DNA from: Candidatus Scatomonas merdigallinarum
Lineage (GTDB): Bacteria; Bacillota; Clostridia; Lachnospirales; Lachnospiraceae
Direction: 5' to 3'
Length of the DNA: 64,000 bases
NCBI GenBank assembly: GCA_018716305.1
Contig: DVKB01000016.1
Span: 937-64,936, forward strand
Made by a program: the position numbers and the translations under genes. The notes under the pieces are model-generated. The model had not been told where the DNA came from. It saw only the letters and a list, made by a program, of their open reading frames with translations, and ran no database searches. Shown in pieces: positions 16,064-62,800 of this stretch (positions are counted from its first letter, which is position 1; each line of letters opens with the position of its first letter).

Positions 16064-16209
16064 TCCTTACATTTTTTATTTGCACAAGGCAGCCTGTCCT
16101 GCCGAAATGCTCACATCATACAAAGAGCGCAGAGCATACGTACTTTTATTCCGCTGCACCACGCTCTTTGACATTATGCTAAGCTACTTGTCTGTTCCTT
16201 CGTATCAGA

Positions 16210-17262
16210 TTAGATTCCGTACTGCTCGATATCTGCGTCTGTGATGGTATCGCAGTCGAAACCTTTCTCCTCCATAATGATCTTCTTCTCGGTGATCTCC
16301 TCGCCGGCCTGATCTTTCTGGATGATCTCATCGATGTAGGATGCCTGATAAGGATTGCACTGTCCGTCGTAGTTCCAATTTCCGGCCTTAACCTCTTCCA
16401 GAGCCCACTTATTGGTATCGAAGCCCATGATGATTACATCGCCGTCTTTTCCGTGGGAGATATTTGCCTTATCCAGAGCTGCCACAGCGCCTTTAGCCAT
16501 ATCATCGTTCTCCGCGTAGATTACGTTGAACTCAGTACCCTGATCGATTACAGACTGAACGATCTGCTGAGCTTTCTCTGCGTTCCACTCTGCGGTCTGC
16601 TGGGTTACGATGTTCCATCCCTCAGCTTTAGCCATCTCATTCAGCGCCTCTGTACGTCCTACCTGAGCGGCAGAGCCCATAACACCCTGAATGTGAATGA
16701 TGTTGTAGGAATCCAGTCCCTCATCTTTCAGCCAGTTGCAGGCGGTGTCGCCCTCAGCTCTCATATCGGAAACGATGGAAGCCAGATACATGCTCTCATC
16801 AGCATCGATGGTACGGTCGAACAGGATTACGCCGATTCCGTTGTCAGCAGCGTCCTGCAGAACGCCGTCCCAGCCTGATGTATCAGCCGCGGACAGAAGC
16901 AGGTAATCTACACCGTCCTGGATGAACTTCTGAGCGGCTGCGATCTGCTCATCGTTCTTCAGGCTGTATGCGAAAGAAGCCTCGTATCCGTTAGCCTCGG
17001 TGAACATTTTTTTCATATCCGCATCGTTGGCGGTACGGTATCCGGACTCGTTGGGGTCGTTGTTGATGATACCAACTTTGATCAGCTCTCCGTCTGCTGC
17101 CGCGGAACCCTCATCTGCGTCCGCCGCGCTTCCATTGCTGGTAGTGGTGGTGTCAGATCCGCTGTTTGTGCTGACATCTTTGGTCTCCTCGGAAGAGCCG
17201 CATGCCGCCAGGCTTACTGCCATAGCGGAAACCAGTAATGCTGCAATTAATTTTCTTTTCAT
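16210..17262 (-). CDS. Sugar-binding lipoprotein (YtfQ-like; arabinose/galactofuranose class inferred)
   Basis: Lipobox LAAC; NESGYRTAN, QIAAAQKFI, YAENDDMAKG, GQCNP motifs resembling YtfQ-type SBPs. Confidence 0.85.
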   Translation of the reverse strand: MKRKLIAALLVSAMAVSLAACGSSEETKDVSTNSGSDTTTTSNGSAADADEGSAAADGELIKVGIINNDPNESGYRTANDADMKKMFTEANGYEASFAYSLKNDEQIAAAQKFIQDGVDYLLLSAADTSGWDGVLQDAADNGIGVILFDRTIDADESMYLASIVSDMRAEGDTACNWLKDEGLDSYNIIHIQGVMGSAAQVGRTEALNEMAKAEGWNIVTQQTAEWNAEKAQQIVQSVIDQGTEFNVIYAENDDMAKGAVAALDKANISHGKDGDVIIMGFDTNKWALEEVKAGNWNYDGQCNPYQASYIDEIIQKDQAGEEITEKKIIMEEKGFDCDTITDADIEQYGI

Positions 17263-45201: not shown

Positions 45202-45891
45202 TCAGGCCGGCGTATCCGCTGTTTTTCCGGAAGCACCGCTCTTTCTGCTTTCCTTTTTAGAAAACAGCAGCGGTTCCAGAAATTTCAGCATTTTTCCAAA
45301 CATTCTGGCAATAAAGCCCACCAGAAGGGCAACGATGATGGTTCCCTCTCTGACTCCTTCCAGGCGGCGGGCCAGCAGCAGAGACAGAAGGGCGGCGCAC
45401 ACTGCCATCGTCACATCAAACAGAACCTTTGTAATCCCAAATTCTTTTTTAGACACGGCAGAAACAGCCCGTACAAAAGACTCCCCCGGCAGCATAACTA
45501 CATTGGCCAGTACTTCCAGATACACACCGAAGCCGAGAACCAGACACCCTATCAGCAAAGCAAGAATTTTTGCCGGATAGGCCGCCGGATGGATAAAATG
45601 GAACAGCTCCATGGTCAGATCAATAAAATATCCAAATAAAATAGTAGCGGGAATCTGGAGAAAATATTCCGGTTTAAAATCTTTCCGAAGGATCAAAAGC
45701 TGAAGAAGGATCAGAAATGCATTGAAAATAACGGTAAACGCTCCCAGGGTCAGAGGAAAATTCAGGCTGAGCACATAGGGAACAGATGAGATGGGAGAAG
45801 TTCCCAGATCTGCCAGGGTAATCAGGCTGACCCCCAGTGAGTTAATAAAAAGTCCAACAAAAAACACCACATAACGTTTCATTTTTTCCAT
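45202..45891 (-). CDS. YczE/YitT-like membrane protein
   Basis: LGTSPISSVPYVL, VREGTII; about 6 TM segments; downstream of marR. Confidence 0.85.
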   Translation of the reverse strand: MEKMKRYVVFFVGLFINSLGVSLITLADLGTSPISSVPYVLSLNFPLTLGAFTVIFNAFLILLQLLILRKDFKPEYFLQIPATILFGYFIDLTMELFHFIHPAAYPAKILALLIGCLVLGFGVYLEVLANVVMLPGESFVRAVSAVSKKEFGITKVLFDVTMAVCAALLSLLLARRLEGVREGTIIVALLVGFIARMFGKMLKFLEPLLFSKKESRKSGASGKTADTPA

Positions 45892-45895
45892 ATAT

Positions 45896-46321
45896 TTAGG
45901 CCTCCTCTTCTGTCATATTCTTATATATATGAAAAAACAGTTCCATAAATTGCTGTCTGTCTTCCGCCGAAAAACCCCGAAACGCGGTTTCCTCCAGTTT
46001 TTTAAATTTGTCCTGTATGATCCCCAGAAGTTCCTCTCCCTTGTCCGTCAGGAAAATATAATAGGTTCTGCGGTTTCCGCCCAGCATCCGGCGCTCTACC
46101 ATTCCCTTTTCTTCCATGCGGTTTAAGATAGAAGTCAGAGAACCCGGCTCGATCCTGCAGCCTTCCGCCAGTTCTTTCTGGCTGGCCCCGTTGTGATCCT
46201 GAAGATAGTCCAGCACCTTGGGCTGTCCCGCTGTCAGTTCTGTCTCTTTCAGATCTGTCAGCAGCTTCTTCTGCAGCAGCATGTGATTGGTCATCAGCAT
46301 ATAATGATAGGTCGGTTTCAC
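45896..46321 (-). CDS. MarR-family regulator
   Basis: LTAGQPKVL.YL, QKELA, SLTSILNRME.KG.VER, RR.Y.I.LT.KG. Confidence 0.93.
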   Translation of the reverse strand: MKPTYHYMLMTNHMLLQKKLLTDLKETELTAGQPKVLDYLQDHNGASQKELAEGCRIEPGSLTSILNRMEEKGMVERRMLGGNRRTYYIFLTDKGEELLGIIQDKFKKLEETAFRGFSAEDRQQFMELFFHIYKNMTEEEA

Positions 46322-46359
46322 TTTACTCCCTCCTTTCCCCGGCCACGGCTGCCAGGAAT

Positions 46360-46434
46360 ATAGTTATAATTATAATTATTTGAATTATAACTATTTCATC
46401 ACACAATTATACGCAGTCTTTGTTCCCGCGTCAA
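46360..46434 (-). promoter_or_regulatory. marR promoter and candidate MarR operator
   Basis: TTGACG (46434-46429), 17 nt, TATAAT (46411-46406); perfect 12-bp inverted repeat atagttataatt (46360-46371) / aattataactat (46383-46394). Confidence 0.75.
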
Positions 46435-46510
46435 GCATAAATCGGGCAGAGATGCCTGCAGATCCGGCAGGATAAGTTACTTTCCCGGATCCTTTCCCAC
46501 GGAAGATCGC

Positions 46511-46543
46511 AAAACGCACCCTACCCATGGCAGAGTGCGTTTT
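46511..46543. terminator. Hairpin/terminator after the LacI-SBP gene
   Basis: aaaacgcac / gtgcgtttt stem. Confidence 0.6.
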
Positions 46544-46550
46544 CAACGTT

Positions 46551-48599
46551 TTATTTTTCAAACACATAATTGGGATTTTCTTTAAAGGCCTGGGTCAGTT
46601 CCTCCCCGGCTTCCTCTTTGAAGACCTGTTTCCAGGCGCGGAGAAGATTTTCCGGCGTCACCGTAATGGGTTCTACTCCCACAAAGGAGGGCACCTCTTC
46701 TCCCAATACAGATTTTACAGCCGCCAGGGCAATGGCCTGGCCCTGTTCAAAGGGGCACTGGGCGCTGAGGGCTTTGACCATGCCTCCTTTTGCCATGTTC
46801 ATGGCCACGGCGTAATCCAGGTCTCCGGTGGAGATGGCGATATCCGTGCGTCCCAGCTCCGTCAGGGCCTCAATGCTTTCTATGGCCGGACCGTCCCAGG
46901 AAATGTAGAGGGCCTCGATCTCCGGATATCTTTTTATCAGTTCCCGGGTTTTTCTGTAAACCTCTCCCTCATTTTCAAACCGGACTTCTCCGCACAGCCG
47001 CAGATCCGGATATTCTTCCGCAAGGACCTGTTTCGCCGCGTTGTCCCGCTGATTGGTGGCGTAGAAATCCGCGTTGTGCACAATCACGCCGTAGTTTTTC
47101 AGCCCATGCCGGTACATGTACTCCCCCAGCCCGTGCCCCATATTCTGTCCATGGGAGCGCTCGTTGACAGAGACACAGGTGACGTAATCCTCCCGGGAGA
47201 GGCCTTCCGGCACACTGTTGATCAGCACCAGCTTCATGCCGCTTTCCGCGATCTTCCGGAAAGCTTCGGAGGTGCGCTTGTTGTCCGAGGGGATGGCGAT
47301 CATGATATCCGGCTTCAGAAGTGCCAGACTTTCCAGCTGCCTGCACTGCAGCTGGGGATCAAAATGCGCGTCTGTAATGGCGATGACAGAGATCCCCATC
47401 CTGTCAAAAACGTTGCGGATCCCCCTCTGATGAAGTTCCATCCAGGCCTTCCCGGCATAGTGGAAGGAAATGGCCGCTGTCAGCTTTTTCTGCCGGATAA
47501 CGGAAATCTTATCTTCCGGAACGATCAGCTCCTCCATGGCGGCCGCCCGCTCGCCAAAGGGGCCTCTGCCGATCCCCCGGGTGGAATCCCGGATGACCAG
47601 CTTCATGGACAGGGTCTCCGTTTTATAGACCTCTTTGAAGGCCGGCTGGTTGGCCGGTTCCTGACGGGCGATGCGCTTCAGCAGTGTATCCGCCGCCAGC
47701 TCCGCATAGGGCTCCACATCCTGCTCGATGGTGGTGAGGGCCGGCGTGTACAGAGGCGCCCATTCAAAAAAGTCAAAGCAGACCACGGAAATGTCCCCCG
47801 GACATTGAATGTTGTGAGCGCTGATATATTTTAAAAAGGGCGTTACTACCGCGTAATTTGCCAGCAGCACCGCTGTGGGCATATGATCTTTTTCCAGCAG
47901 CCGGTCCATGGCCTCAAAAAAATCCATGTCATTCTGGAGATGGGGATAAATGTACGCCTCCTCGGCCGGGATCCCCGACTCTTCCAGCGCTTTTTTATAG
48001 CCCTCCAGGCGCATGGGCATCCGGTCGCTGCTTCGGCCAAGAAAGGCGATCCGTTCGTGTCCCTTGTTGATCAGGTGCTTGGTCCCTTTGTAGGCCCCCT
48101 CAAAGGTATCAGTGCAGACCGTATCCGCCAGATAGCCTTCCACCTCTCTTCCCAGAATGACCACCGGTACCCGGGCGTCCGCCAGCACATGCTTAATCAG
48201 GAGATCTTTTTCATCAGGAAAAACAATGAGCCCGGCGGCTGCGTTCCCCTGGACCACCGCCTGCAGGAACCCTGCCATCCCATCGATGTCCGCTCCGCAT
48301 TCAATGGTGACCAGCGTGTATTCCGTACTCTTTAGTTTTTCATCTATCTTCCGCTCCACCCGGCGCTGAAAATTGCTCTGCTTGTCCGAGAGCAGCATAA
48401 AGATATATTTTCCGTCTTTTTCAAAGAACGGCGTCATCTTTTTTTTCAATACAAAATTCGGAGGCGTCTCCAGCTCCCGTATGGCCCTCTCAACTTTTTC
48501 CACCTTCTCCGGGCTTACATAACGGGTTTTATTTACTACGTGTGAAACTGTGGAGACGGAAACCCCCGCCATTTTTGCTATGTCATTGATCGTTGCCAT
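46551..48599 (-). CDS. LacI-family regulator fused to a second C-terminal sugar-binding domain (682 aa)
   Basis: MATINDIAKMAGVSVSTVSHV HTH, LacI core (LGR..E..RLEGY, VVCFD, LTTI.Q), then an uninterrupted domain alignable to the SBP at 52383-53576. Confidence 0.88.
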   Translation of the reverse strand: MATINDIAKMAGVSVSTVSHVVNKTRYVSPEKVEKVERAIRELETPPNFVLKKKMTPFFEKDGKYIFMLLSDKQSNFQRRVERKIDEKLKSTEYTLVTIECGADIDGMAGFLQAVVQGNAAAGLIVFPDEKDLLIKHVLADARVPVVILGREVEGYLADTVCTDTFEGAYKGTKHLINKGHERIAFLGRSSDRMPMRLEGYKKALEESGIPAEEAYIYPHLQNDMDFFEAMDRLLEKDHMPTAVLLANYAVVTPFLKYISAHNIQCPGDISVVCFDFFEWAPLYTPALTTIEQDVEPYAELAADTLLKRIARQEPANQPAFKEVYKTETLSMKLVIRDSTRGIGRGPFGERAAAMEELIVPEDKISVIRQKKLTAAISFHYAGKAWMELHQRGIRNVFDRMGISVIAITDAHFDPQLQCRQLESLALLKPDIMIAIPSDNKRTSEAFRKIAESGMKLVLINSVPEGLSREDYVTCVSVNERSHGQNMGHGLGEYMYRHGLKNYGVIVHNADFYATNQRDNAAKQVLAEEYPDLRLCGEVRFENEGEVYRKTRELIKRYPEIEALYISWDGPAIESIEALTELGRTDIAISTGDLDYAVAMNMAKGGMVKALSAQCPFEQGQAIALAAVKSVLGEEVPSFVGVEPITVTPENLLRAWKQVFKEEAGEELTQAFKENPNYVFEK

Positions 48600-48715
48600 T
48601 TTTTCCACCCATCTGTCTGTTCTACTAAACTCCATTATACAGGCCCGGCAAAAAAAAATCAATTTCTCATATTGCCGGACGGGAAAGGGGCCGCATTTCT
48701 GCAGCCCCTGTCTGT

Positions 48716-49891
48716 TTAATCCTCAACCTTTTCCCACTGTTTACTTTCCGCGGATTTTCTCACCGCCTCGCATACCCGTTCTACCCGATAGCCCACCTCA
48801 AAGCAGGTGCTGGGCTGATATCCCTCGGTGATGGCCTTAATAAACTCATACATCTCGATGGTCTTTAATTCCCCATAACCGATGTTCATGCCGGGAATAT
48901 TCCAGGTAACTTCCCCGTGGAAATGGGCGGGGCCTGTATAGATGGTCTTGAAGCCTCTTCTGTCGTCGGGATCATCGGCAAAGCATACCTGCAGTTCATT
49001 TAATCTTTCATAATTAAACGCGATGCTGCCTTTGGTTCCGTGAAGTTCCACTGTAATAAAGTTATTTCTTCCCCAGGCGTTTCTTGTGGCCTCGATGCTT
49101 CCCACCGCGCCGTTTTTAAATTTCACAAGGAAGGAATCCTCGTCATCCACATCCACGGCCTTTCTGGGCGCGTCCGCTCCCAGTTTCACGGTTCCCAGAA
49201 GATCCACGCCGCCTTCCTGCACCGGTCTTTCTTTGATGTAGGTCTTCATCAGGGAAACAACTTCATCGATATCTCCCGCCAGGTACTGGGCAATATCAAT
49301 TACATGAGACGCGATGTCTCCCAGGGCGCCGGCGCCGGCAATATCCTTCTGGAATCTCCAGGAAAGAGGAGAGTCCGGATCCGCGGACCAGCTCTGCAGA
49401 TAGGTACAGCGGATGTTCAGGATCTGCCCGATAGCGCCCTCGTCGATAAATTTTTTGGCCAGATCCAGGGCCGGAACCCTGCGGTACTGGTACGCGTTCA
49501 TGCTGATTACCCCTTTGGCCGCCGCTTCTTTGGCTGCCTCCGCCATCGCCTTGGCGTCTTCCAGGGTGGAGGCGATGGGTTTTTCACAGAGAACGTGTTT
49601 TCCCGCCTTCAGCGCCGCGATGGCAATGGGCGCATGGGCGTTGTTGGGAGTACATACGCTTACCACATCGATCTCCGGATCATTCACGATATCCTGCCAG
49701 TCCGTACAGTATTTTTCAAAGCCAAACCGGTCTTTGGCGTCTCTGGCAATATCCGGATCGATATCACAGATGGTTTTCAGCACAGGCACCGCCGGCGCCG
49801 GCCAGAAGAATTTCGGCATATTCGAGTATGCCACCACATGGGCTTTGCCCATAAACCCTGCTCCTACCAAGCCTACATTTAAAGTTTTCAT
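48716..49891 (-). CDS. Gfo/Idh/MocA oxidoreductase, levoglucosan-dehydrogenase-like (divergent paralog)
   Basis: VGLVGAGFMGKAH, MPKFFWPAP, CEKP, YLQSWSADPDSPLSWRFQK, GALGDIASH, EATRNAWGRNN. Confidence 0.85.
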   Translation of the reverse strand: MKTLNVGLVGAGFMGKAHVVAYSNMPKFFWPAPAVPVLKTICDIDPDIARDAKDRFGFEKYCTDWQDIVNDPEIDVVSVCTPNNAHAPIAIAALKAGKHVLCEKPIASTLEDAKAMAEAAKEAAAKGVISMNAYQYRRVPALDLAKKFIDEGAIGQILNIRCTYLQSWSADPDSPLSWRFQKDIAGAGALGDIASHVIDIAQYLAGDIDEVVSLMKTYIKERPVQEGGVDLLGTVKLGADAPRKAVDVDDEDSFLVKFKNGAVGSIEATRNAWGRNNFITVELHGTKGSIAFNYERLNELQVCFADDPDDRRGFKTIYTGPAHFHGEVTWNIPGMNIGYGELKTIEMYEFIKAITEGYQPSTCFEVGYRVERVCEAVRKSAESKQWEKVED

Positions 49892-49932
49892 GATTTTGTC
49901 CTCCTTAAACAAATAATAGTTTTCGCTGCCGA

Positions 49933-50895
49933 TCAGTTTTTCTTTTTCCTCTGACTCAGATTGCTGATGGCTACTGCCAGGATAATGATCCCGCCTTTAA
50001 TCATGGTCTGCTGCGCAGAGCTCAGATTTGCCAGGATTACGGCATTGTTCATCATTCCCATGAGAACCGAGCCAAACAAAGCGCCGATCACCGAACCGGT
50101 TCCGCCTGACATAGCGGTTCCGCCCAGTACCACCGCGGCGATCACGGACATTTCATCTCCATCGCCGTAGGAATACCGGCCGGCCTGCATACGGGCCGCG
50201 TACATAATGCCGGCAAAAGCCGCGAAGGCTCCGGACATGGTGAAGGCAATGATCTTTACCTTCTGGGTGTTAATACCGCTGTAGATGGCGGAGTTCTCAT
50301 TTCCTCCTGTGGCAAGCACATGTCTTCCAAAAGCAGCTTTATTGAAAATGAGGATTCCGGCGATATAGAACAGCACCGTCCAGATTACCAGCACCGGGAT
50401 TCCGGCGACATCTCCGATTCCGAAAATATTGCAGAAAAGTTTATTCTCAATGGGAACGGCGGCGGTGTCCGTGATCCACATGGCGGCTCCACGAACCAGT
50501 TCCATGGTTCCCAGTGTGGCCAGGAACGCCGGAAGCTTCAGTTTTGTAACCAGCAGTCCATTGACCAGGCCGACCAAAGCGCCGAATCCCAGGCCTACAA
50601 TCAGGGCCAGGAAAATGTTATTGGTCGCCTGCAGGACCAGGGAGACCAGCATGGCGGTCATGGCGGTGATAGAGCCTACCGTCAGATCGATCTGTCCCGC
50701 TGCCATAACAAACACGCCTGCCACAGACATAACAGAAATCATGGCTGTCTGTCTGAGAATATTGATCAGGTTCCTCGGCTGCAGAAAGCCTTTATTCCCC
50801 AGGATCAGCGCGAACAGGACAAATACCACGGCAAAGATGATATAGACCATATATTTGTCCCACTGTATATTTCTTTTACTTTTGCTGGATTGCAT
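49933..50895 (-). CDS. Monosaccharide ABC permease (RbsC-like)
   Basis: GQIDLTVG, PAFLATLG, EMSVIAAVVLGGT. Confidence 0.92.
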   Translation of the reverse strand: MQSSKSKRNIQWDKYMVYIIFAVVFVLFALILGNKGFLQPRNLINILRQTAMISVMSVAGVFVMAAGQIDLTVGSITAMTAMLVSLVLQATNNIFLALIVGLGFGALVGLVNGLLVTKLKLPAFLATLGTMELVRGAAMWITDTAAVPIENKLFCNIFGIGDVAGIPVLVIWTVLFYIAGILIFNKAAFGRHVLATGGNENSAIYSGINTQKVKIIAFTMSGAFAAFAGIMYAARMQAGRYSYGDGDEMSVIAAVVLGGTAMSGGTGSVIGALFGSVLMGMMNNAVILANLSSAQQTMIKGGIIILAVAISNLSQRKKKN

Positions 50896-52372
50896 ACTGC
50901 AGTACCTCCTCTGTTTCTATGTCTTTTCTGTCGATCTCTCCAGTGATATGTCCGTCAAAGATCGTAATGATCCTGTCGCACACAGCCATCAGTTCCGCCA
51001 GTTCTGAAGAAACAAACAAGACACCCTTCCCCTGATCCGCGTAATCCCGGATCAGAGAAATAATCTCCGCTTTCGCGCCGACATCCACTCCCGCGGTGGG
51101 TTCATCCAGCATCATTACCTCCGGATCCATATTCATCCATTTGGCGATTACGACTTTCTGCTGATTCCCTCCGGAAAGAAGGTTGATTCTTTTATGGATA
51201 TCATCTGTCACAATATTCAGCTTCCGGACATTGTCCTCCACGATCTGGTCGGCCTTTTTTTCATCGATAAAAAAGCCGTGCTTTCTTAACTGTTGTATCT
51301 TGGGAAGAACCGCGTTTTCCTTCACCGAATGGATCAGCACAAGTCCCTGCTTCCTTCGGTCTTCAGGGATCAGGGCAAATCCGCTGCGGATCGCCTCGCC
51401 CGGATTCTTCGCCCTCACAATCTCCCCCTTCAGACGGACGGTCCCGCCTTCCTGGTGCCGGAGTCCGAACAAGGTTTCCAGAATTTCCGTCCTCCCGCTT
51501 CCCATAAGCCCGGCAAAGCCAAGGATCTCTCCTTTTTTCAGGCGGAAAGAAATATCCTTGATCCGGTCGTTGATTTTCAGATGATCCACTTCCAGAAGAT
51601 CCGGGCCGTCTTTGTCGTATGTCCTGGGAACCCAGTCAAACTTTTTCCCGGTGCTTTCACCCATCATATGGGTGATGATCTCTTCCAGCGTAATATCGGC
51701 GATCCGGCCTGTGTGCACGATTTTCCCGTCCCGCAGAATGGAGATCCGGTCCGCGATCTCCATGATTTCATTCATCCGGTGGGATATGTAGATCATGGAA
51801 ACCCCTTTTTTCTGGAGATCCCGCATCATTTTAAACAGGTATTTCGTCTCGGCGTCTGACAGAGAGGCCGTAGGCTCATCCAGCACCAGGATCTTCGCCT
51901 CTTTTTCCATCGCTTTGGCGATCTCCACCATCTGGCTCATTCCCACGCTCAGATCCCCCACTACATCTTTGGGACTCACATCAATGCCCAGTTCGTCCAG
52001 AACCTGCTGGGCTCTCTCCGTCATATACCCTGTTTTCCGAAGTCCTTTTTCCACAACCTCAGAACCCAGAAAAATGTTTTCTTCCACCGTCATGCTCTGA
52101 ACAAGAGATAACTCCTGAAAGATCATTCCGATACCGTTTTTCTTCGCGTCATGGGTATCGTGGATCACCGTTTCCGTTCCGTTGACCAGAATCGTGCCGG
52201 CATCTTTGGTGTACACGCCTGTCATGATCTTCATCAGAGTGGATTTTCCGGCTCCATTGCCGCCCACCAGGGCGTGGATCTCTCCCTTTTCCAGAGAGAA
52301 ATCCACTCCCTTCAGCACCGGTACGCCAAAAGATTTTTCAATCCCTTTCATTTCCAGTACGTATGGATTCAT
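50876..52372 (-). CDS. Monosaccharide ABC ATPase (RbsA-like)
   Basis: GGNGAGKST, LDEPT twice, LSGGNQQK; ATG 52372 after ggagg. Confidence 0.95.
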   Translation of the reverse strand: MNPYVLEMKGIEKSFGVPVLKGVDFSLEKGEIHALVGGNGAGKSTLMKIMTGVYTKDAGTILVNGTETVIHDTHDAKKNGIGMIFQELSLVQSMTVEENIFLGSEVVEKGLRKTGYMTERAQQVLDELGIDVSPKDVVGDLSVGMSQMVEIAKAMEKEAKILVLDEPTASLSDAETKYLFKMMRDLQKKGVSMIYISHRMNEIMEIADRISILRDGKIVHTGRIADITLEEIITHMMGESTGKKFDWVPRTYDKDGPDLLEVDHLKINDRIKDISFRLKKGEILGFAGLMGSGRTEILETLFGLRHQEGGTVRLKGEIVRAKNPGEAIRSGFALIPEDRRKQGLVLIHSVKENAVLPKIQQLRKHGFFIDEKKADQIVEDNVRKLNIVTDDIHKRINLLSGGNQQKVVIAKWMNMDPEVMMLDEPTAGVDVGAKAEIISLIRDYADQGKGVLFVSSELAELMAVCDRIITIFDGHITGEIDRKDIETEEVLQYAIQQK

Positions 52373-52382
52373 TTTATCCTCC

Positions 52383-53576
52383 TTACTCAGCAACTGCCTC
52401 CTTCAGCCAGTCCGGAGCCTCGACATGGTATACGTCCTCGTATGCTTCCAGAACATTGGAACGCTCTACTCTCTTGGCGTCAACGACCACATAGGGCGGA
52501 GCTTCCTTGCCCAGCAGAGAATACGCGGCCAGGGTGGCTTCGGCTACGCCCTGGTCATAGGGCAGCTGCGCTCCCAGTCCCACGACATTTCCCTCGGCAA
52601 TTTCTTTTGCCATATTGTTTCCAAGGTCGATGGTGGTCAGCTTCACGTCATCTCCGGTAAGTCCCGCGGCTCTCACAGAAGACAGAACTCCTTCCATAGG
52701 AATATCCCAGCTGGCGTAAATGCCGTCGATCATGGGATACTGGGTCAGGATCGCATCTCCCTGCTCGGAACATCCGTTCTCATCGGTAAAGCCCTGCTCG
52801 GAAACGATCTCGATGCCGGGATATTTCTCAGCGATGGTATCCTTGAATCCCTGATCCCTCTGGTTGGTTACGAAGTACACGGTGTCATAGTAAACCATGG
52901 CGATCTGGCCTTCGCCTCCAAGGGCCTCGCCCATTAAGTCCGCGGCGATGCAGCCGTTTCCGTAATTATCCGCGGAAACACAGCTTACATAGTCTTCACC
53001 GGCTGTCATGCCTTCCGGCACATTGTCCATGAAGACAAGCTTGATTCCTGCCTCCGTTACGCTCTGGAAAGCATCCGCAGTGGCCGTGGCGTCCGTGGGA
53101 ATGCTGACGATGATATCCGGGTTTTTCGCCATAATGGTCTCGATATCGGATACCTGCTGCTCCGCGGAAAAATCCGCGTCGGTAACAGCCACAACCTCGA
53201 TCCCCAGATCCTCAAAGGTAGCCTGAAGCCCCTCCAGCTGTGAGGAGGCCCAGTCGTTTCCGCCATAGTGAAGGGAAATGGCAGCTGTATATCCGCCGTC
53301 CCGGATCTGCTGTTTTTCTTCTTCGGTCAGCTGGATCTCGGAAGCGGGGGTGGCAGCTTCCCCGTTGGGTCCGGTGGCTCCGCCCTTATTTTCCGTCTCT
53401 GTTCCTGTTTCTGTCTCCGGAGCTTCCCCCTGGGAGCTTCCGCTCTCAACAGACCCGCTCTCAGCGCCCACGGAACTTCCGCCGGGTTCAGTCTCCCCGC
53501 TCTGACCTCCGCAGCCGGCTGTCAAAGACAGCGCCATACCCAAAGCCAACATCACACTGACTGTTTTTCTCTTCAT
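52383..53576 (-). CDS. Sugar-binding lipoprotein of the anhydro-sugar cluster
   Basis: Lipobox LTAGC, Ser/Glu/Gly-rich tether, periplasmic-binding fold (TDADF, VSADNYGNG, LGAQLPYDQG). Confidence 0.92.
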   Translation of the reverse strand: MKRKTVSVMLALGMALSLTAGCGGQSGETEPGGSSVGAESGSVESGSSQGEAPETETGTETENKGGATGPNGEAATPASEIQLTEEEKQQIRDGGYTAAISLHYGGNDWASSQLEGLQATFEDLGIEVVAVTDADFSAEQQVSDIETIMAKNPDIIVSIPTDATATADAFQSVTEAGIKLVFMDNVPEGMTAGEDYVSCVSADNYGNGCIAADLMGEALGGEGQIAMVYYDTVYFVTNQRDQGFKDTIAEKYPGIEIVSEQGFTDENGCSEQGDAILTQYPMIDGIYASWDIPMEGVLSSVRAAGLTGDDVKLTTIDLGNNMAKEIAEGNVVGLGAQLPYDQGVAEATLAAYSLLGKEAPPYVVVDAKRVERSNVLEAYEDVYHVEAPDWLKEAVAE

Positions 53577-53610
53577 ATTCTTTTCCCCTTTCTACTCTAT
53601 GTACCTGGTC

Positions 53611-54429
53611 TTACAGGAGTTTTCCTTTCAAAAAATCATAGGAGGTCTGGCAGGCAAACACCGGATCTCCCGCGTAGCCGTCCACTTCTACCAAATAGTC
53701 TCCCGCATAGCCCTTTTCCTTCAGGAAATCCAATACTCCGTCAATATCCAGACGGCCGGTTCCCAGGGGCGCAAAGCCGTTATCATCCAGATCCTTCAGG
53801 TGAACAAAGGAGATGCGGTCATAATATTTTTTAACAATCGTGAGAGGATCCCCGCCGCCGGCTGCCAGGTGTGCCAGGTCCGGACAGATCTTAATGGATG
53901 TCTCCGCGAACAGCCGGTCCACCTGTTCCGGCGCTTCCGCCATAGAACCCAGATGGGGGTGATAACTGGCCTCAATCCCATATTCCGCGAATACTTTCGC
54001 CGCCATATCCAGGCCTTTGCCCAGCAGGCAGTAGTCCTGATCCTGAATGCCTTTGCCCCGGATCGCTCCGCCGCAGAGCGCGGCGTAGGTAACGCCTACC
54101 GCCTGACCTGCTTTCGCCACCTGCTCCATATGGAACATTTCATCTTCCAGGGCGTCCTGATAAATAAAGTTCGCGCCCACACAGACGCTCATCATCTCAG
54201 CGGAATATTTCTGAAGCATGTCTTTGAGCACGGAAAGGTCGCTGCTGTACTTTGTAAGGTTTCCTTCCAGTACTTCAATGCTTTTGAATCCCACCCCGGT
54301 GATCTTCTTAAGGATTTCTTCATCGTCACCCATGGTAAGATAACGGATATCTTTCACACTGGTGACACCTGCTCCTTCCCCTACAAGAGGGCCGAACCCA
54401 TTGGTCATATAACCAACTCTCATTTTCAT
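53611..54429 (-). CDS. Sugar phosphate isomerase/epimerase TIM barrel (IolE/AP-endonuclease-2 fold; candidate 3-keto-sugar eliminase or hydratase)
   Basis: ASYHPHLG, ICPDLAHL, SFVHLKD, LVEVD metal motifs; ATG 54429 after aggagg. Confidence 0.8.
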   Translation of the reverse strand: MKMRVGYMTNGFGPLVGEGAGVTSVKDIRYLTMGDDEEILKKITGVGFKSIEVLEGNLTKYSSDLSVLKDMLQKYSAEMMSVCVGANFIYQDALEDEMFHMEQVAKAGQAVGVTYAALCGGAIRGKGIQDQDYCLLGKGLDMAAKVFAEYGIEASYHPHLGSMAEAPEQVDRLFAETSIKICPDLAHLAAGGGDPLTIVKKYYDRISFVHLKDLDDNGFAPLGTGRLDIDGVLDFLKEKGYAGDYLVEVDGYAGDPVFACQTSYDFLKGKLL

Positions 54430-54447
54430 GTACCTCCTTTTCTCATA

Positions 54448-54465
54448 AAAATTTGCGCAAATTTT
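54448..54465. promoter_or_regulatory. LacI-type operator 1 (perfect 18-bp palindrome)
   Basis: AAAATTTGCGCAAATTTT, downstream of the leftward promoter TTGACG (54504-54499), 17 nt, TATAGT (54481-54476). Confidence 0.85.
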
Positions 54466-54617
54466 ATTTACGCCCACTATACACCTCTTGTGCTTTTTCG
54501 TCAATCCTTTCTTTCCCATCCCTTGATTTTTGTAAATTTTTCACATTTTTCGCATGCTGATTTTATGCTGTTTGCTTATTGATTTTCTCTCCCGCTTTCG
54601 TCATAATTATTTTTAAG

Positions 54618-54635
54618 AAAATTTGCGCAAATATT
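54618..54635. promoter_or_regulatory. LacI-type operator 2
   Basis: AAAATTTGCGCAAATATT (one mismatch to operator 1), downstream of the rightward promoter TTGATT (54579-54584), 17 nt, CATAAT (54602-54607). Confidence 0.85.
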
Positions 54636-54668
54636 GTTTGTACAAAACCATCCGAAAGGAGTATCCCT

Positions 54669-55583
54669 ATGAAATTAGGTTTTATCAGTTCTATTCTGGA
54701 CACTTCTTCCTTCGAAGAAGTCATCGATACCGCGGCGGCCCTTGGCTACGAATGCGTTGAAGTAGCCTGCTGGCCCAAAGAAAAAGCAGCCCGCCGGTAC
54801 GCCGGCATCACCCACATTGATATAGAAGCCCTTACCGATGAAAAAATCGCTTCTATTCATGAAACCTGTCTCAAAAAAAATGTGGCCATTTCCGCTCTGG
54901 CCTACTATCCCAACACGCTGACCGATGATCTTCCCCAGCGCCAGAAAGCGGTAGATCACCTGAAAGCCATGATCGAGGCAGCGCCCAAGCTGCACGTCGA
55001 CACGGTTACTACCTTTATCGGCCGGGTGCAGAACCTTACCGTAGAAGAAAATCTGGAGATTTTCAAAGAGGTGTGGACTCCCATTATCCGCTTTGCCGAA
55101 GAACACAAGGTAAAAATCGCCATCGAAAACTGTCCCATGCTCTTCGGGCCGGACCAGTGGCCCGGAGGCCAGAACCTGATGACGACTCCCGCCATCTGGC
55201 GCAGGGCATTCCAGATGATCCCCAGCGATTTCTTCGGCCTGAATTACGATCCCTCTCATTTTGTATGGCAGCAGATCGATTACATCAAACCTTTGTATGA
55301 ATTCAAGGACAAAATTTTCCACGTACACTACAAGGACATCAAGGTGTACCCCGACAAGCTGGACGACGTGGGCATCATGGCTTATCCTCTGGATTTTATG
55401 TCCCCGAAGCTTCCGGGACTGGGGGATGTGGACTGGGGAAAATACGTGTCCGCGCTGACAGACATCGGATATGACGGGTACACCTGTATAGAGATCGAGG
55501 ATAAAGCATTTGAGGGCTCCCCGGAAAGGATCCTGGACGCCCTGCGCATTTCCTACCGCTACATGAGGCAATTTGTTATCTGA
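54669..55583 (+). CDS. Sugar phosphate isomerase/epimerase TIM barrel (candidate 3-keto-sugar eliminase or hydratase)
   Basis: IAIENCPM, GLNYDPSHFVW, FHVHYKD, PGLGDVDW, CIEIED; ATG 54669 after aaggag. Confidence 0.85.
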   Translation: MKLGFISSILDTSSFEEVIDTAAALGYECVEVACWPKEKAARRYAGITHIDIEALTDEKIASIHETCLKKNVAISALAYYPNTLTDDLPQRQKAVDHLKAMIEAAPKLHVDTVTTFIGRVQNLTVEENLEIFKEVWTPIIRFAEEHKVKIAIENCPMLFGPDQWPGGQNLMTTPAIWRRAFQMIPSDFFGLNYDPSHFVWQQIDYIKPLYEFKDKIFHVHYKDIKVYPDKLDDVGIMAYPLDFMSPKLPGLGDVDWGKYVSALTDIGYDGYTCIEIEDKAFEGSPERILDALRISYRYMRQFVI

Positions 55584-55606
55584 CCTAACAGAAAAGGAGT
55601 TTACTT

Positions 55607-56791
55607 ATGGAAATAAAGAAAATGAACATCGGACTGATCGGGGCCGGTTTTATGGCCAAAGCGCATTCTATCGCTTACGCGGGAATGCCCATGTTTTTCT
55701 GGCCGGCGCCGGCCATTCCGGTCAAAAAAATGATCGTAGATATGAATGAGGCTATCGCCAGAGACGCGAAGGAAAAACTGGCCTTTGAGTCCTATTCTAC
55801 GGACTGGCACGACGTCATCAGCGATCCCTCCATTGATATTGTGGATATCTGCACCCCCAACAACGCTCACGCGGAGATCGCCATTGCCGCGGCAAAAGCC
55901 GGAAAGCATATCATCTGCGAAAAACCTCTGGCCCTTACTTCCGAGGAAGCAAAGCAGATGTACCTGACCGCCAAGGAAAATCACGTAAAGACCATGGTGG
56001 CTTTTAATTACCGCAGAACACCGGCGGTTCAGCTGGCAAAAAAATATATTGACGAAGGAGCCATCGGCGAGATCCTGGATTTCCGGGGCACGTATCTGCA
56101 GGACTGGTCCGCGGATCCCGATTCTCCTCTGTCCTGGCGGTTCCAGAAAGCCATCTGCGGAAGCGGCGCCCTGGGCGACATAGGCACCCATGTAGTAGAT
56201 ATGCTCCGTTTCCTGGTGGGCGACTTTAAACGGGTCAACGCCAGAGCCGCCACCTACATCAAAGAGCGTCCCTGCCAGACTGGTCTTTCCGATTCTCTGG
56301 GAAATGCCCGGGTACAGGAGGGAACTCCCAAAAAGGCCGTAGACGTAGACGACCAGTGCATTTTTATGGTGGAATGCGCCAACGGAGCCTTCGGCAGCAT
56401 CGAGGCCACCCGGAACGCCTGGGGCCGCAACAACTACATCACCTTTGAGATCCACGGAACCAAAGGTTCTCTCTACTTCAATTATGAGCGCCGGGACGAG
56501 CTCCAGGTCTGCTTTGCTGACGACGCTTCTGACCGCCGGGGCTTCCGCACCATTTATACCGGCCCCAACCATCCTTACGGCGAAGGCCTGTGGCCCATCC
56601 CTGCTCTGGGAATCGGATACACCGAGACGAAGATCATCGAATGCTACGATTTCTTCCGGGCCCTCCAGGGCGACGGCGAAGCCTCTCCCAACTTCCGGGA
56701 CGGTTATGCCATTGAGCTGATCTCCGACGCGATCCTGGAATCCGCCAAGACCCAGACCTGGGTGGATGTAAAATCCCCCGTTGAGAAATAA
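55607..56791 (+). CDS. Levoglucosan dehydrogenase-like oxidoreductase (Gfo/Idh/MocA)
   Basis: AHSIAYAGMPMFFWPAP, AFNYRRTPAV.LAKKYI.EGAIG, YLQDWSADP.SPLSWRFQK, NYITFEIHGT, HPYGEGLWPIPALGIGY; these strings match my recollection of characterised LGDH (LgdA). Confidence 0.85.
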   Translation: MEIKKMNIGLIGAGFMAKAHSIAYAGMPMFFWPAPAIPVKKMIVDMNEAIARDAKEKLAFESYSTDWHDVISDPSIDIVDICTPNNAHAEIAIAAAKAGKHIICEKPLALTSEEAKQMYLTAKENHVKTMVAFNYRRTPAVQLAKKYIDEGAIGEILDFRGTYLQDWSADPDSPLSWRFQKAICGSGALGDIGTHVVDMLRFLVGDFKRVNARAATYIKERPCQTGLSDSLGNARVQEGTPKKAVDVDDQCIFMVECANGAFGSIEATRNAWGRNNYITFEIHGTKGSLYFNYERRDELQVCFADDASDRRGFRTIYTGPNHPYGEGLWPIPALGIGYTETKIIECYDFFRALQGDGEASPNFRDGYAIELISDAILESAKTQTWVDVKSPVEK

Positions 56792-56821
56792 ACAAAAGAA
56801 ACGTGTGCCGCCAGGCGCACA

Positions 56822-56881
56822 AAGAAGCCGCAGACCCGACGCTGCTCACAGCGTCCACCGGGTTTGCGGCTTCTTCTTTTT
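56822..56881. terminator. Terminator between the convergent LGDH-like and NSS transporter genes
   Basis: aagaagccgcagacccg / cgggtttgcggcttctt stem with inner acgctg/cagcgt hairpin and a T run. Confidence 0.85.
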
Positions 56882-56917
56882 GGCTTATACAAAAATGCTC
56901 TGTTTTTCAACCGGCGG

Positions 56918-59854: not shown

Positions 59855-62800
59855 TCAGGCTTTTCTGCTTTTTCTCTTCCAGGTATAAGCCGCCGCGGCT
59901 CCGCCTGCTCCGGCCAGCAGAAGGACTGCCCATACAGTCATTTCCGCGGGATCTCCGGTGGCGGCAGATCCGCCCTGATTCTGGCTTCCGCTGCCCGGCT
60001 TGCCGGATGTTCCAGGTTTGTCCGCGTCATCTCCCGGTTTCGTTCCGGGTTTGTCCGTGTCATCTCCCGGAGTGGTTCCCGGCTTGTCAGGATCGGTTCC
60101 CGGATCTACTTCAGGCAATTTTTCCAGGCCGTCGATGGCCGCGTTCAGGGCTGCCGCCGCCTCATCCACTGCCGCCTGCTCCGCGGTTTCATCCTCATAC
60201 AGAGTCTGAGCCGTATCCAGGGCCGCGTACAGTTTCTCCAGACTCGCGGTGGTGTACTTGCTGCTGTCCACTGCGGAAGCTTTGTCGATGGCTTCTTTCA
60301 GGGCCGTCTTGTCTGCCTTAGGCCCTTCCACAGGAGCTTTCTCCAGAGCGTCAATGGCCGCCTGAAGAGCTGCCGCCGCACTGTCTACATCCTCCTGAGA
60401 CGCGTCATGATCCGCGTCCACGGCTGCCGCCGCTTCCAGAGCTTCCTGCAGCGCGTTCCAGGTTTCCGCTGTGTAGTCGGTTTCTGACAGTTCGTTCGCC
60501 TCAGCCATCAGGGCCTGAAGCTCTGTCTTGTCAGATACGCGCACCAGGGCATCATAGGCGCTGTTCAGATCTGCTGCCGCAGTATCTACCGCTGCCTGCT
60601 CCGCGGTTTCATCCTCGTACACATCCTTCGCCGCCTCCAGAGCCTCATACAATTTCTCCAGGCTTGCGTTGGTGTACTCGCTGCTGTTGATCTCGGAAGC
60701 CTTGTCGATAGCTTCTTTCAGAGCTGTCTTGTCAACTTCCGGCTGGGGCTCTTTCTCAGTGAACTGCCAGGACTGAATCTCCATGAGATCATCCTCACCC
60801 TCGCCGTTGTAAACGAAGAACAGGGTGTGCTCGCCTACCGCGTTTTCCACGCTGCAGGACATTGCGGTAAATTCGCCGTTTCCGCCCTCTACGTTCAGAG
60901 TACCGATCAGCTGGCCGTCAGGGCTGTCCAGGCGAAGCTCGATGGTTCCGCCGGCCAGTCCGGCAATCTGCGCTTCAAAAGTATCCGCGCCAACCTCGCC
61001 GAAGTCCACGCCGCCGATGGCAACCCAGTCTCCATTGTTAATGGAGGAAAGCACCATGTCGTTGCCGCCCAGATCTCTGGGAGCAATGCCGGAGTTCCAT
61101 CCGATGGTAGTTCCCGGCACTTCACTGTAGGGCGAGAAGGCTTTCAGCTGGGAAATACCTGCCATGTCCGCGTCAATGGGTTTGATGGAGCCGTCTTCAT
61201 AGTATTCTACCTCATTAATATGGGTAGAACGGTATCCTTTTTCAATGCCCAGGGCTTTTCCAAGGGTCTGCGCATGATAGGTAATGTAGGTTGTTCCGTT
61301 AAACTCAAAGAGCGCATGGTGGTTGTTTCCGCCGACGTTGAAGTAATAGGAGGGATTCTGAAGAATCTCGCCCACATAGGTATACGGTCCCATGGGATCA
61401 TCACTTACCATGCAGCAGATGATTCCGTATCCGGGATATCCGGGGATAGCGGAATGATCGCCAGAGAAGTTGGAGCAGTAAGTGTAGTAATATTTTCCGT
61501 TTGCCTTGTGAATGCCGCCGTCCTCAAACATGCAGGGGGCGTCGATCATCTTCGGGATTCCGTCCTCATCGTCTGCCAGGCTGGTCATATTGTCCGCCAG
61601 TTTTACGATTCGCGCGCTCTTGGGATTCAGATCCTGTCCCGCCGGCACACCGCCGCCGAATGCCAGGTATCCGGTTCCGTCGTCATCTACCATAACCGCC
61701 GGGTCAAACACCCAGGGAACTCCCTGTACGCCCGGAGTACTTCCGGTAATGAGCGCCTTTCCGTTGGGATCTCTCCAGGGGCCTACCGGTGAATCGCCTT
61801 CCAGCACGCCGATGCCGCCGCCGCTGTTGCAGAAATACAGGAAGAACTTGTCTACGCCGTCAATCTGCTTGTAGGCAATGGCCGGAGCCCAGGAATAGGT
61901 TGCCCATTTCGCTACGCCGTTGGGTCCTGCTACCTGGATAAATCCGTGGTCCGTCCAGTTCACCATATCGGCAGAAGAGATTACGTGCAGCTTGTTAATC
62001 AGCTGATAGGTGTTGTCAATCAGGTTGCCTTCCTCATCATACTCGTACTGGTCCGCGGTCATGTACACATAGACACGTCCGCCATATACCAGCGCGAAGG
62101 GATCCGCGCCGTAATCGTAATCGATCAGGGGGTTGGAGTTGCCCAGCAGCTTGGCAATGGCATTGTTCTCGGATTTTACCAGAGGAATGGAGGCTGTGGC
62201 ATTGCTCACGTTAAATGCCGCGTCAACGCCCTCCGCCGTTACATAGTCCACCCGCAGGGTTACGGTGGTATTCTCCGCCGCGTAATTGTTCAGCTTCAGT
62301 TTCAGAGTGGCGAACAGGCGGTCGCCGCTGTTGTCGGCATAGCCCGCGCCCTCTCCGGTTACGCTGAGCTTCAGCTGATGGTTGGCAAAAGTCCAGGAAG
62401 CAGTTCCGCTGACATTCTCCTCATTGAACGCAACCTCTTCCACATCCAGGATAGACGGAATATTCACGGAAACTTCCATGCTGTCCGCCGTTCCCTCCGG
62501 CAGCGCGTCCATGTAAAGGGGTACTTCTACTTCCGTATTGATGATGCCCTCTACCTCCTGCGCGTCTGCCATATTTACGTTCAGGGTATTTTCCGCAGCC
62601 TGCGCTCCGTCATTGACATGGAAGTAATCCACATCCACATAGCCGCCCGCGGACTGGGTCGCGTAGTTAAAGATAGCGAAACGATATCCCATGAAATGAG
62701 GCAAGGTGTAGGACATATTCAGGGTATTGCCGATCTTGTTCCAGGTCGTTCCGTCCAGGCTGTAGTAAAAGTCCGCGTCATCCGCATGCTGATAGAAATT

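Follow-up and report, generated by a model that had tools for sequence, protein, structure and literature searches.

Heating of starch or cellulose yields levoglucosan (1,6-anhydro-beta-D-glucose) as the main sugar, and to our knowledge the bacterial breakdown of this compound has been demonstrated solely in aerobic or facultative soil and industrial isolates. Sugiura 2018 is said to be among the earlier work on the known levoglucosan dehydrogenase (LGDH) pathway. The present analysis concerns a gene cluster at 46551-56791 of a 64,000-nt stretch of DNA from Candidatus Scatomonas merdigallinarum (assembly GCA_018716305.1, contig DVKB01000016.1, positions 937 to 64,936, forward strand), referred to here as the window. 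Judged from sequence comparisons, the cluster is most likely an LGDH-type system for levoglucosan uptake and conversion, in a variant form typical of Clostridia, and the probability that it would import levoglucosan or a very close 1,6-anhydrohexose and convert it to glucose was estimated at about 70%.

The pathway itself is already known (Kuritani et al. 2020, PMC7676230; Kaur et al. 2023, PMC10066097), and LgdA already has an NCBI naming model. In Bacillus smithii, the enzymes LgdA, LgdB1, LgdB2 and LgdC carry out C3 oxidation, beta-elimination, hydration and reduction (Kuritani et al. 2020, PMC7676230). The lgd cluster of B. smithii S-2701M resembles the present one in that both contain an LgdA-clade dehydrogenase, a triosephosphate isomerase (TIM) barrel of LgdB1 type and size, a larger metal-type barrel and a second Gfo/Idh/MocA dehydrogenase, together with a sugar ATP-binding cassette (ABC) transporter and LacI-family control; both are without kinase and glycosidase, and the predicted four-step chemistry is the same. 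The two clusters differ in the second dehydrogenase, which is an LgdA paralogue here (Gfo2, 58-60% identity) and LgdC there (about 33% identity to LgdA), and in the larger barrel, which here (TIM2) has 304 aa and is 24% identical to the LgdB2-like family (322 aa) as compared via plasmid-borne stand-ins. The present cluster also has one permease instead of two, a regulator with an extra binding-protein domain, and a strict anaerobe as host. An earlier reading of this DNA from its letters alone (the sequence-only reading) had drawn on the four-enzyme B. smithii scheme, which held for LgdA and LgdB1, both with orthologues here, but not for LgdB2 and LgdC, to which TIM2 (24%) and Gfo2 (26-27%) are not orthologous.

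Three annotated plasmid-borne lgd clusters, from Arthrobacter agilis, Klebsiella pneumoniae and Metabacillus, were found by tblastn and served as anchors. Compared with these and with the lgdA-lgdB1-lgdC(-lgdB3) loci of Pseudarthrobacter and Paenarthrobacter (PMC10066097), the present cluster is alike in LgdA (66-68% identity), LgdB1 (41-45%) and the binding protein (49-58%), whereas LgdC-type reductases, LgdB3-type barrels and ROK or plain LacI regulators are found there.

The cluster comprises eight genes, arranged as two divergent operons and a regulator with its own promoter, along with two palindromic operators and flanking terminators. The sequence-only reading had described a divergent regulon with two TIM barrels, two related Gfo dehydrogenases, a transporter, a regulator, twin operators and terminators, and each of these was found in place; the gene survey also agreed with it that neither a kinase nor a glycosidase lies within 46551-56791. 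The two Gfo/Idh/MocA dehydrogenases are 58% identical to each other, and TIM1 and TIM2 showed hardly any relatedness in sequence comparison. No further Gfo or PF01261 homologues were found elsewhere in the 64-kb window, and the genes flanking the cluster are ordinary chromosomal genes. The eight genes are:

46551-48599, minus strand: regulator, LacI family, 682 aa
48716-49891, minus strand: Gfo2, Gfo/Idh/MocA dehydrogenase, 391 aa
49933-50895, minus strand: ABC permease of CUT2 (ribose/arabinose) type, 320 aa (PF02653; AraH/RbsC-like)
50876-52372, minus strand: ABC ATPase with two cassettes, 498 aa (PF00005 twice; XylG/AraG-like)
52383-53576, minus strand: substrate-binding lipoprotein, 397 aa (Peripla_BP_4; lipobox LTAGC, Gly/Ser/Glu/Thr-rich linker)
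53611-54423, minus strand: TIM1, xylose-isomerase-like TIM barrel, 270 aa, 29.2 kDa (PF01261)
54669-55583, plus strand: TIM2, metal-type xylose-isomerase-like TIM barrel, 304 aa, 34.8 kDa (PF01261)
55607-56791, plus strand: LGDH, orthologue of LgdA, Gfo/Idh/MocA family, 394 aa, 43.7 kDa

LgdA, TIM1 and the binding protein

The 394-aa protein scored 733.6 bits on NF052479 (LevoglcsnDh), the curated NCBI equivalog model for levoglucosan dehydrogenase, and thus passed its cut-off of 650 bits. Its closest solved structure is the LGDH of Pseudarthrobacter phenanthrenivorans (PDB 6A3F-6A3J; E 1.7e-183, 67.9% identity), and its identity to the reference LgdA proteins (PpLgdA and those of the Arthrobacter, Klebsiella and Metabacillus plasmids) was 66-68%; the two characterised LgdA proteins, from Pseudarthrobacter and Bacillus smithii, share 70.1% (Kaur et al. 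2023, Table S3, PMC10066097). A neighbour-joining tree placed the protein within the LgdA clade, together with PpLgdA (6A3F) and the three plasmid-encoded LgdA. The GxGxxG fold (GLIGAGF), the EKP motif (CEKP) and the catalytic His (GTHVVD) are conserved, and an Asp occupies the NAD-selecting site, at the position of Glu43 of PpLGDH; in the latter enzyme Glu43 selects NAD over NADP and His193 is catalytic. The strings that the sequence-only reading had linked to LGDH (MPMFFWPAP, YLQDWSADP and GEGLWPIPALGIGY) were all present both in the 394-aa protein and in 6A3F. That reading had also allowed for a low identity to LgdA or a grouping with IolG or other dehydrogenases; the results showed instead 68% identity to PpLgdA, a place in the LgdA clade, a pass on the LGDH model and a failure on the IolG model (139 bits against a cut-off of 355). 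By homology, the product of 55607-56791 is an LgdA orthologue, with a predicted function as NAD+-dependent levoglucosan 3-dehydrogenase.

These scores also bear on a reading of the cluster as an inositol or inosose catabolic module, in which an IolG-like dehydrogenase would work with an IolE- or IolI-like TIM barrel. Apart from weak secondary matches to the IolG, IolE and IolO models and to PDB entries of IolE and IolI, the evidence pointed elsewhere: the dehydrogenases reached 139 and 128 bits on IolG (TIGR04380; cut-off 355), the barrels 96 and 38 bits on IolE (TIGR04379; cut-off 290), the LGDH model scored five times higher, and iolB, iolC, iolD and iolJ were not found among the genes. With Iol model scores so far under the cut-offs, inositol catabolism was rejected as hardly credible.

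The smaller barrel, TIM1, could be placed through the anchors. The barrels of about 272 aa that adjoin LgdA in the references (271-274 aa) are 51-62% identical to one another, compared with 55.5% between BsLgdB1 (BCB28820.1) and PnLgdB1; the Metabacillus 322-aa and Arthrobacter 332-aa barrels share 25%, compared with 26.7% between LgdB2 and LgdB3; and the extra Gfo proteins of these clusters are 31-32% identical to LgdA, compared with 32-33% for LgdC (Kaur et al. 2023, PMC10066097). The masses of the Metabacillus LgdA-, B1-, B2- and C-like proteins are 43.0, 30.2, 36.8 and 43.9 kDa, and those of LgdA, LgdB1, LgdB2 and LgdC of B. smithii are 44, 30, 36 and 43 kDa (Kuritani et al. 2020, PMC7676230). 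Because the identity pattern and the masses match the published values, the reference proteins were treated as LgdB1, LgdB2, LgdB3 and LgdC types. B. smithii itself was neither among the best 80 loci of the TIM2 genome scan nor among the 120 best protein matches to the Metabacillus LgdB2-like query, and the plasmid locus of Deinococcus gobiensis was without an LgdB2-like gene.

Over its full length, TIM1 shared 41-45% identity with the LgdB1-type barrels of the three reference clusters (E 1e-72 to 1e-78) and was their reciprocal best match. Its 270 aa agree with the published size of LgdB1, about 275 aa and 30 kDa (PMC7676230, PMC10066097), and LgdB1-type barrels are neighbours of LgdA in 253 of 265 cases (Kaur et al. 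2023, PMC10066097). TIM1 is, by these comparisons, a member of the LgdB1-type family and is proposed as the candidate 3-keto-levoglucosan beta-eliminase. The sequence-only reading had held that eliminase and hydratase could not be told apart by eye; this no longer stands, since TIM1 is now the eliminase candidate and TIM2 the hydratase candidate.

The binding lipoprotein was 49-58% identical to those encoded in the lgd clusters of the Arthrobacter agilis, Klebsiella pneumoniae and Metabacillus plasmids. This conservation across three phyla argues that the proteins would bind the same ligand.

Two further systems share the chemistry. The GlycDH/AtOGE/AtHYD/Gfo operon of Agrobacterium tumefaciens (Kastner et al. 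2023, PMC10628242; PDB 8BVK, 8RO4) follows the logic of oxidation, beta-elimination, hydration and reduction, and AtHYD is the closest functionally named structural match of the TIM2 model. The DgpA/DgpB-C C-glycoside system of the gut Lachnospiraceae strain PUE likewise joins a Gfo/Idh/MocA 3-oxidoreductase to a xylose-isomerase-like TIM-barrel lyase in gut Clostridia. A cluster for C- or O-glycoside deglycosylation of either kind, acting on plant glycosides, would have an identical pathway logic, and DgpA, DgpB-C and AtHYD are indeed among the distant sequence or fold matches. However, the E values of DgpA against the dehydrogenases of the cluster were no better than 1e-24 to 1e-29, compared with 1e-156 to 1e-183 for LGDH, the cluster has no DgpB-like small subunit, AtOGE matched the TIM1 profile at E 0.002 only, TIM2 is 18-19% identical to AtHYD, and a CUT2 monosaccharide-type transporter fits flavonoid glycosides poorly. 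The A. tumefaciens operon moreover works with a flavoenzyme oxidase on O-glycosides, and the DgpA system on aromatic C-glycosides. Deglycosylation of plant glycosides is thus considered very improbable for this cluster.

Gfo2 and TIM2

Gfo2 was 59-60% identical to the four LgdA proteins and 26-27% identical to the LgdC-like proteins. It is thus an LgdA paralogue and not LgdC, being far closer to every LgdA than to the LgdC-type proteins, and its identification as LgdC was rejected on these values. It scored 628.4 bits on NF052479, below the cut-off, and in the neighbour-joining tree it fell in a clade of its own, sister to the LgdA clade. Like LgdA, it has the GxGxxG and EKP motifs, the catalytic His and an acidic NAD-selecting residue. 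Ten positions are fixed differently between the two clades, five of them in a single loop (PpLgdA positions 325-332) that reads GEGLWPIPALGIGY in LgdA and GEVTWNIPGMNIGY in Gfo2. In PpLgdA numbering the loop positions are L325, P327, A330, L331 and G332, and the differences elsewhere include N132, R293 and D294.

In the Clostridial loci, Gfo2 always accompanies TIM1, and the minimal locus (L009) consists of exactly LgdA, TIM1 and Gfo2. This set parallels the lgdA-lgdB1-lgdC sets carried by Actinobacteria (Kaur et al. 2023, PMC10066097). From the constant association with TIM1 and from this parallel it is tentatively proposed, at a little under even odds, that Gfo2 would be a 3-keto-glucose reductase recycling the NADH that LgdA produces. 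According to Kaur et al. 2023 (PMC10066097), about 40% of lgdA neighbourhoods lack LgdC, and the reduction of 3-keto-glucose may be carried out by LgdA itself. Alternatively, Gfo2 may be a second dehydrogenase specific for another anhydrosugar, or even the primary enzyme.

In Neobacillus sp. PS3-12 (locus L013), the Gfo2 orthologue at L013:5510-6681 is 82-85% identical and is split over two frames, as either a frameshifted pseudogene or a sequencing error. The locus of this member of the Bacillaceae also encodes the fused regulator, and its TIM2 is 77% identical to that of the window; these similarities suggest transfer between Clostridia and Bacilli.

TIM2 was 24% identical (E 1e-16) to the LgdB2-type 322-aa barrel of Metabacillus and 30% identical to the LgdB3-type 332-aa barrel of Arthrobacter, and these values ruled it out as an orthologue of either. 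By sequence it belongs to a separate, widespread PF01261 family. In a scan with one genome per species, at least 594 species had a relative of TIM2, the best 80 being still 66-86% identical. TIM1 and Gfo2 were also present in only 8 of these 80 loci; most of the remaining loci have a Gfo/Idh/MocA protein of 344-351 aa and an ABC transporter immediately ahead of TIM2. This Gfo/Idh/MocA partner is 65-71% conserved, and among solved structures it is closest to DgpA, which is the glycoside 3-oxidoreductase of the gut C-glycoside pathway. Relatives of TIM2 in loci L016-L090 (for example L078:4108-10915, L057:5091-10915 and L080:4228-10915) are 66-73% identical across Clostridia and Anaerolineae, and the usual module is a tight pair of TIM2 and the DgpA-like dehydrogenase, preceded by genes for a LacI regulator and a CUT2 ABC transporter.

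The AlphaFold2 model of TIM2 had a mean pLDDT of 82 and a pTM of 0.85. A Foldseek search with this model returned 2ZDS (SCO6571, function unknown) on top, followed by 8RO4, which is AtHYD, the 2-hydroxy-3-keto-glucal hydratase of Agrobacterium, with ketose epimerases and DgpB-C close behind, so that hydratase and epimerase/isomerase folds were not cleanly separated (E 1e-16 vs 1e-14) and the match serves as supporting evidence only. The canonical metal-ligand positions Glu/Asp/His/Glu are invariant. The most economical role for TIM2, held at slightly better than even odds, would be that of a hydratase acting on the eliminated 3-keto-glucal, because it is co-transcribed with LgdA, has a C3-oxidising partner in other genomes and resembles AtHYD in its predicted structure. 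LgdB2 of B. smithii requires Mn2+ and is in part bifunctional (Kuritani et al. 2020, PMC7676230), and some overlap of TIM2 with TIM1 is therefore possible.

Proposed pathway and substrate

The proposed pathway would begin with uptake of the anhydrosugar by the CUT2 ABC transporter (binding lipoprotein, double ATPase and one permease), whose predicted ligand follows from the orthology of the binding protein. LgdA would then oxidise levoglucosan at C3 with NAD+, as suggested by its orthology to the characterised enzymes, and TIM1 would open the 1,6-anhydro bridge to give 2-hydroxy-3-keto-D-glucal. Hydration of this product to 3-keto-D-glucose would fall to the metal-dependent TIM2, to judge from its position in one operon with LgdA and its structural likeness to AtHYD. 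In the least certain step, Gfo2 would use the NADH from the oxidation to reduce 3-keto-glucose to glucose, in place of the missing LgdC. The net reaction would be a redox-neutral hydrolysis and would therefore suit a strict anaerobe, and the pathway would need no kinase or glycosidase of its own.

On a broader scale, it is conceivable, with chances just short of even, that Clostridia, including common Blautia of the chicken and human gut, run a distinct levoglucosan pathway. In such a pathway an ancient LgdA paralogue would replace LgdC or add a second anhydrosugar specificity, a barrel from the widespread module of DgpA-like dehydrogenase and TIM2 would replace LgdB2/LgdB3, and the repressor would owe its sensor to a captured copy of the transporter binding protein.

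Several points weigh against levoglucosan conversion by this cluster. Comparison of all candidates with the references showed that neither canonical LgdC nor canonical LgdB2 is in the window, and the LgdB1, LgdB2, LgdB3 and LgdC types were themselves assigned from plasmid-borne clusters standing in for the B. smithii sequences. The TIM2 family occurs chiefly outside levoglucosan contexts. Contigs from four metatranscriptome runs covered genes, intergenic regions and flanks evenly, probably through DNA or assembly flattening, and cover in a fifth run was patchy and low, with no usable expression signal from any of the five. Full-text literature searches turned up no work on gut anaerobes that use levoglucosan. 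Finally, in Lachnoanaerobaculum (L054, L060) and in the Neobacillus (L013), TIM1, Gfo2, TIM2, the transporter and the fused regulator occur with no LgdA-clade gene within 10 kb. As a core without LgdA thus exists, its substrate may be a different one, or the primary dehydrogenase may be Gfo2.

The same chemistry might accordingly be directed at another sugar that can be activated at C3, such as mannosan, galactosan, cellobiosan-derived units, 1,5-anhydro-D-glucitol, L-sorbose or a small O-glycoside, with Gfo2, TIM1 and TIM2 as the core and the LgdA-clade enzyme as an accessory. In addition to the loci without LgdA, such a reading is consistent with the higher conservation of Gfo2 across loci (69-90%) than of LgdA (63-89%), with the fixed Gfo2-specific substitutions, whose grouping in one C-terminal loop is compatible with a changed specificity, and with the DgpA-like glycoside 3-dehydrogenase as the usual partner of TIM2. 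PpLGDH reportedly has weak side activities on L-sorbose and 1,5-anhydroglucitol (Sugiura 2018). Another substrate is nevertheless considered unlikely, as the LgdA-clade enzyme passes the curated equivalog cut-off, the binding protein shares 49-58% identity with its counterparts in clusters of genera among which there are known levoglucosan users, and LgdB1-type barrels are nearly exclusive to LgdA neighbourhoods (253/265).

Regulation, surroundings and distribution

The regulator combines a Pfam LacI helix-turn-helix and a Peripla_BP_1/3 sugar-binding core (about residues 1-340) with a second domain, Peripla_BP_4 (about 343-682). Its C-terminal half shares 35% identity (E 2e-70) with the mature binding protein of the cluster, and by this likeness the regulator is a LacI repressor to which a copy of the transporter binding protein has been joined; the extra domain probably senses the same transported sugar. 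Orthologous clusters retain the fusion, with lengths of 670-695 aa (also L005:1-1999, L008:7873-9885, L010:981-3035 and L011:1779-3830), and the full-length architecture formed about 48 clusters at 50% identity among a library of 1.84 billion representatives. We know of no characterised regulator of this kind. The promoter-like sites, operators and hairpins are:

46504-46552, minus strand: terminator-like hairpin 3' of the regulator gene (-24.9 kcal/mol, z -5.4), then UUUUG
48662-48634, minus strand: regulator promoter-like site TTGATT-17-TATAAT
48672-48718, minus strand: hairpin 3' of Gfo2, ahead of the regulator promoter (-21.5 kcal/mol, z -3.2)
54448-54465, minus strand: operator 1, perfect palindrome AAAATTTGCGCAAATTTT, upstream of TIM1
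54504-54476, minus strand: promoter-like TTGACG-17-TATAGT upstream of TIM1, sigma-70-like
54579-54607, plus strand: promoter-like TTGATT-17-CATAAT upstream of TIM2-LGDH, sigma-70-like
54619-54634, plus strand: operator 2, AAATTTGCGCAAATAT, upstream of TIM2-LGDH
56818-56884, plus strand: strong intrinsic terminator 3' of LGDH (-40.4 kcal/mol, z -7.5), then a U-run, common with the convergent SNF transporter gene

The divergent region between TIM1 and TIM2 has 245 bp and holds two sigma-70-like promoters, each with the palindrome AAATTTGCGCAAAT(TT) 11-12 nt after its -10 box. Within the 64-kb window, AAATTTGCGCAAAT occurs only at 54449-54464 and 54619-54634; this corresponds to 4 strand-matches against 0.54 expected, and none of 100 shuffles reached 4. 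Of 12 orthologous loci, 11 have the operator AAATTTGCGCAAATTT, with up to three substitutions allowed, upstream of TIM1 and of TIM2/LgdA, compared with only 8 matches in 1.24 Mb of unrelated loci, and in one orthologous locus the regulator gene also has it upstream. The pairing of a LacI helix-turn-helix regulator with a CG-centred palindrome at the regulated promoters is what is expected of a LacI repressor and its putative operator, and the position just past the -10 box fits classical repression. With no inducer, the 682-aa repressor would sit on both operators, just past the divergent -10 boxes. The arrangement is not due to chance, since the same genes occur together in many genomes, with the operator conserved at the corresponding upstream positions.

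The genes for a MarR-family regulator and a DUF6198 membrane protein (45202-46321, minus strand) adjoin the cluster, with a strong promoter-like TTGACG-17-TATAAT at 46434-46406; no link between these two genes and the lgd genes was seen. A stretch of 147 bp in the intergenic region between MarR gene and regulator (46333-46479), which includes an AT-rich ATAATTATAATTATAAC repeat, is missing from the contigs of four chicken-gut runs and from loci L002 and L004, and is therefore a population indel polymorphism. Strains also differ just past the cluster (L002:14823-17160 and L004:13531-21185, corresponding to the window from about 58800 onward): one carries an IS21-type element (IstB and transposase), and another a block with TraC/TraG-like conjugation genes after a nitroreductase gene. 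Further on, 59855-64000 (minus strand) encodes part of a very large secreted glycoside hydrolase, which extends beyond the window end and has 1843 aa in full contigs, with two GH43 domains, CBM4_9, CBM6 and FIVAR; it had the highest contig depth of the region in one metatranscriptome. A second CUT2-type sugar ABC transporter, with two permeases and a double ATPase, lies at 12411-17262 (minus strand) and is unrelated to the lgd cluster; a 350-aa open reading frame within it is probably its binding protein.

Across Clostridia, orthologous clusters were found that carry this operator as well. The best genome match was the cultured type strain Blautia producta DSM 2950, in which all eight genes are syntenic and 72-90% identical, and TIM2 was 90% identical to a protein of Candidatus Blautia intestinavium, in accordance with the Lachnospiraceae-like host that the sequence-only reading had proposed. 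In Blautia caecimuris (L005) the cluster is collinear and on one strand, and an extra 350-aa Gfo/Idh/MocA protein is encoded between Gfo2 and TIM2 (L005:7984-9036); it resembles neither LgdC nor the usual TIM2 partner (24-30% identity). The exact LgdA protein was indexed in 313 blocks of the assembly collection, and the sequencing runs with this DNA were chiefly chicken-gut metagenomes.

LgdA homologues from Blautia producta, Wansuia hejianensis, a Lachnospiraceae bacterium and several human-gut 'Ruminococcus sp.' isolates are already listed in Supplementary file 2 of Kaur et al. 2023 (PMC10066097), which makes no mention of gut or anaerobes. The earlier statement that no characterised example was known in the lineage held for the literature searched, although the Lachnospiraceae homologues had already been listed there without comment. 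No description was found in that literature of the Gfo2 clade in the place of LgdC, of the TIM2 family and its wide link to DgpA-like dehydrogenases, or of the LacI-binding-protein fusion with its conserved operator.

If the proposal is true, it would give functions to the Gfo2 clade, to the TIM2 family with its at least 594 species and to the LacI-binding-protein fusion regulators, and it would provide oxygen-independent enzymes for the bioconversion of pyrolysis sugars. Blautia producta DSM 2950, which is cultured and has the orthologous cluster, makes the proposal directly testable. The pyrolysis sugars of cooked food or heat-pelleted feed would then be a real, redox-neutral carbon source for obligate gut anaerobes, and a pathway working in abundant gut Lachnospiraceae would tie heat-processed diets to a specific microbial niche.

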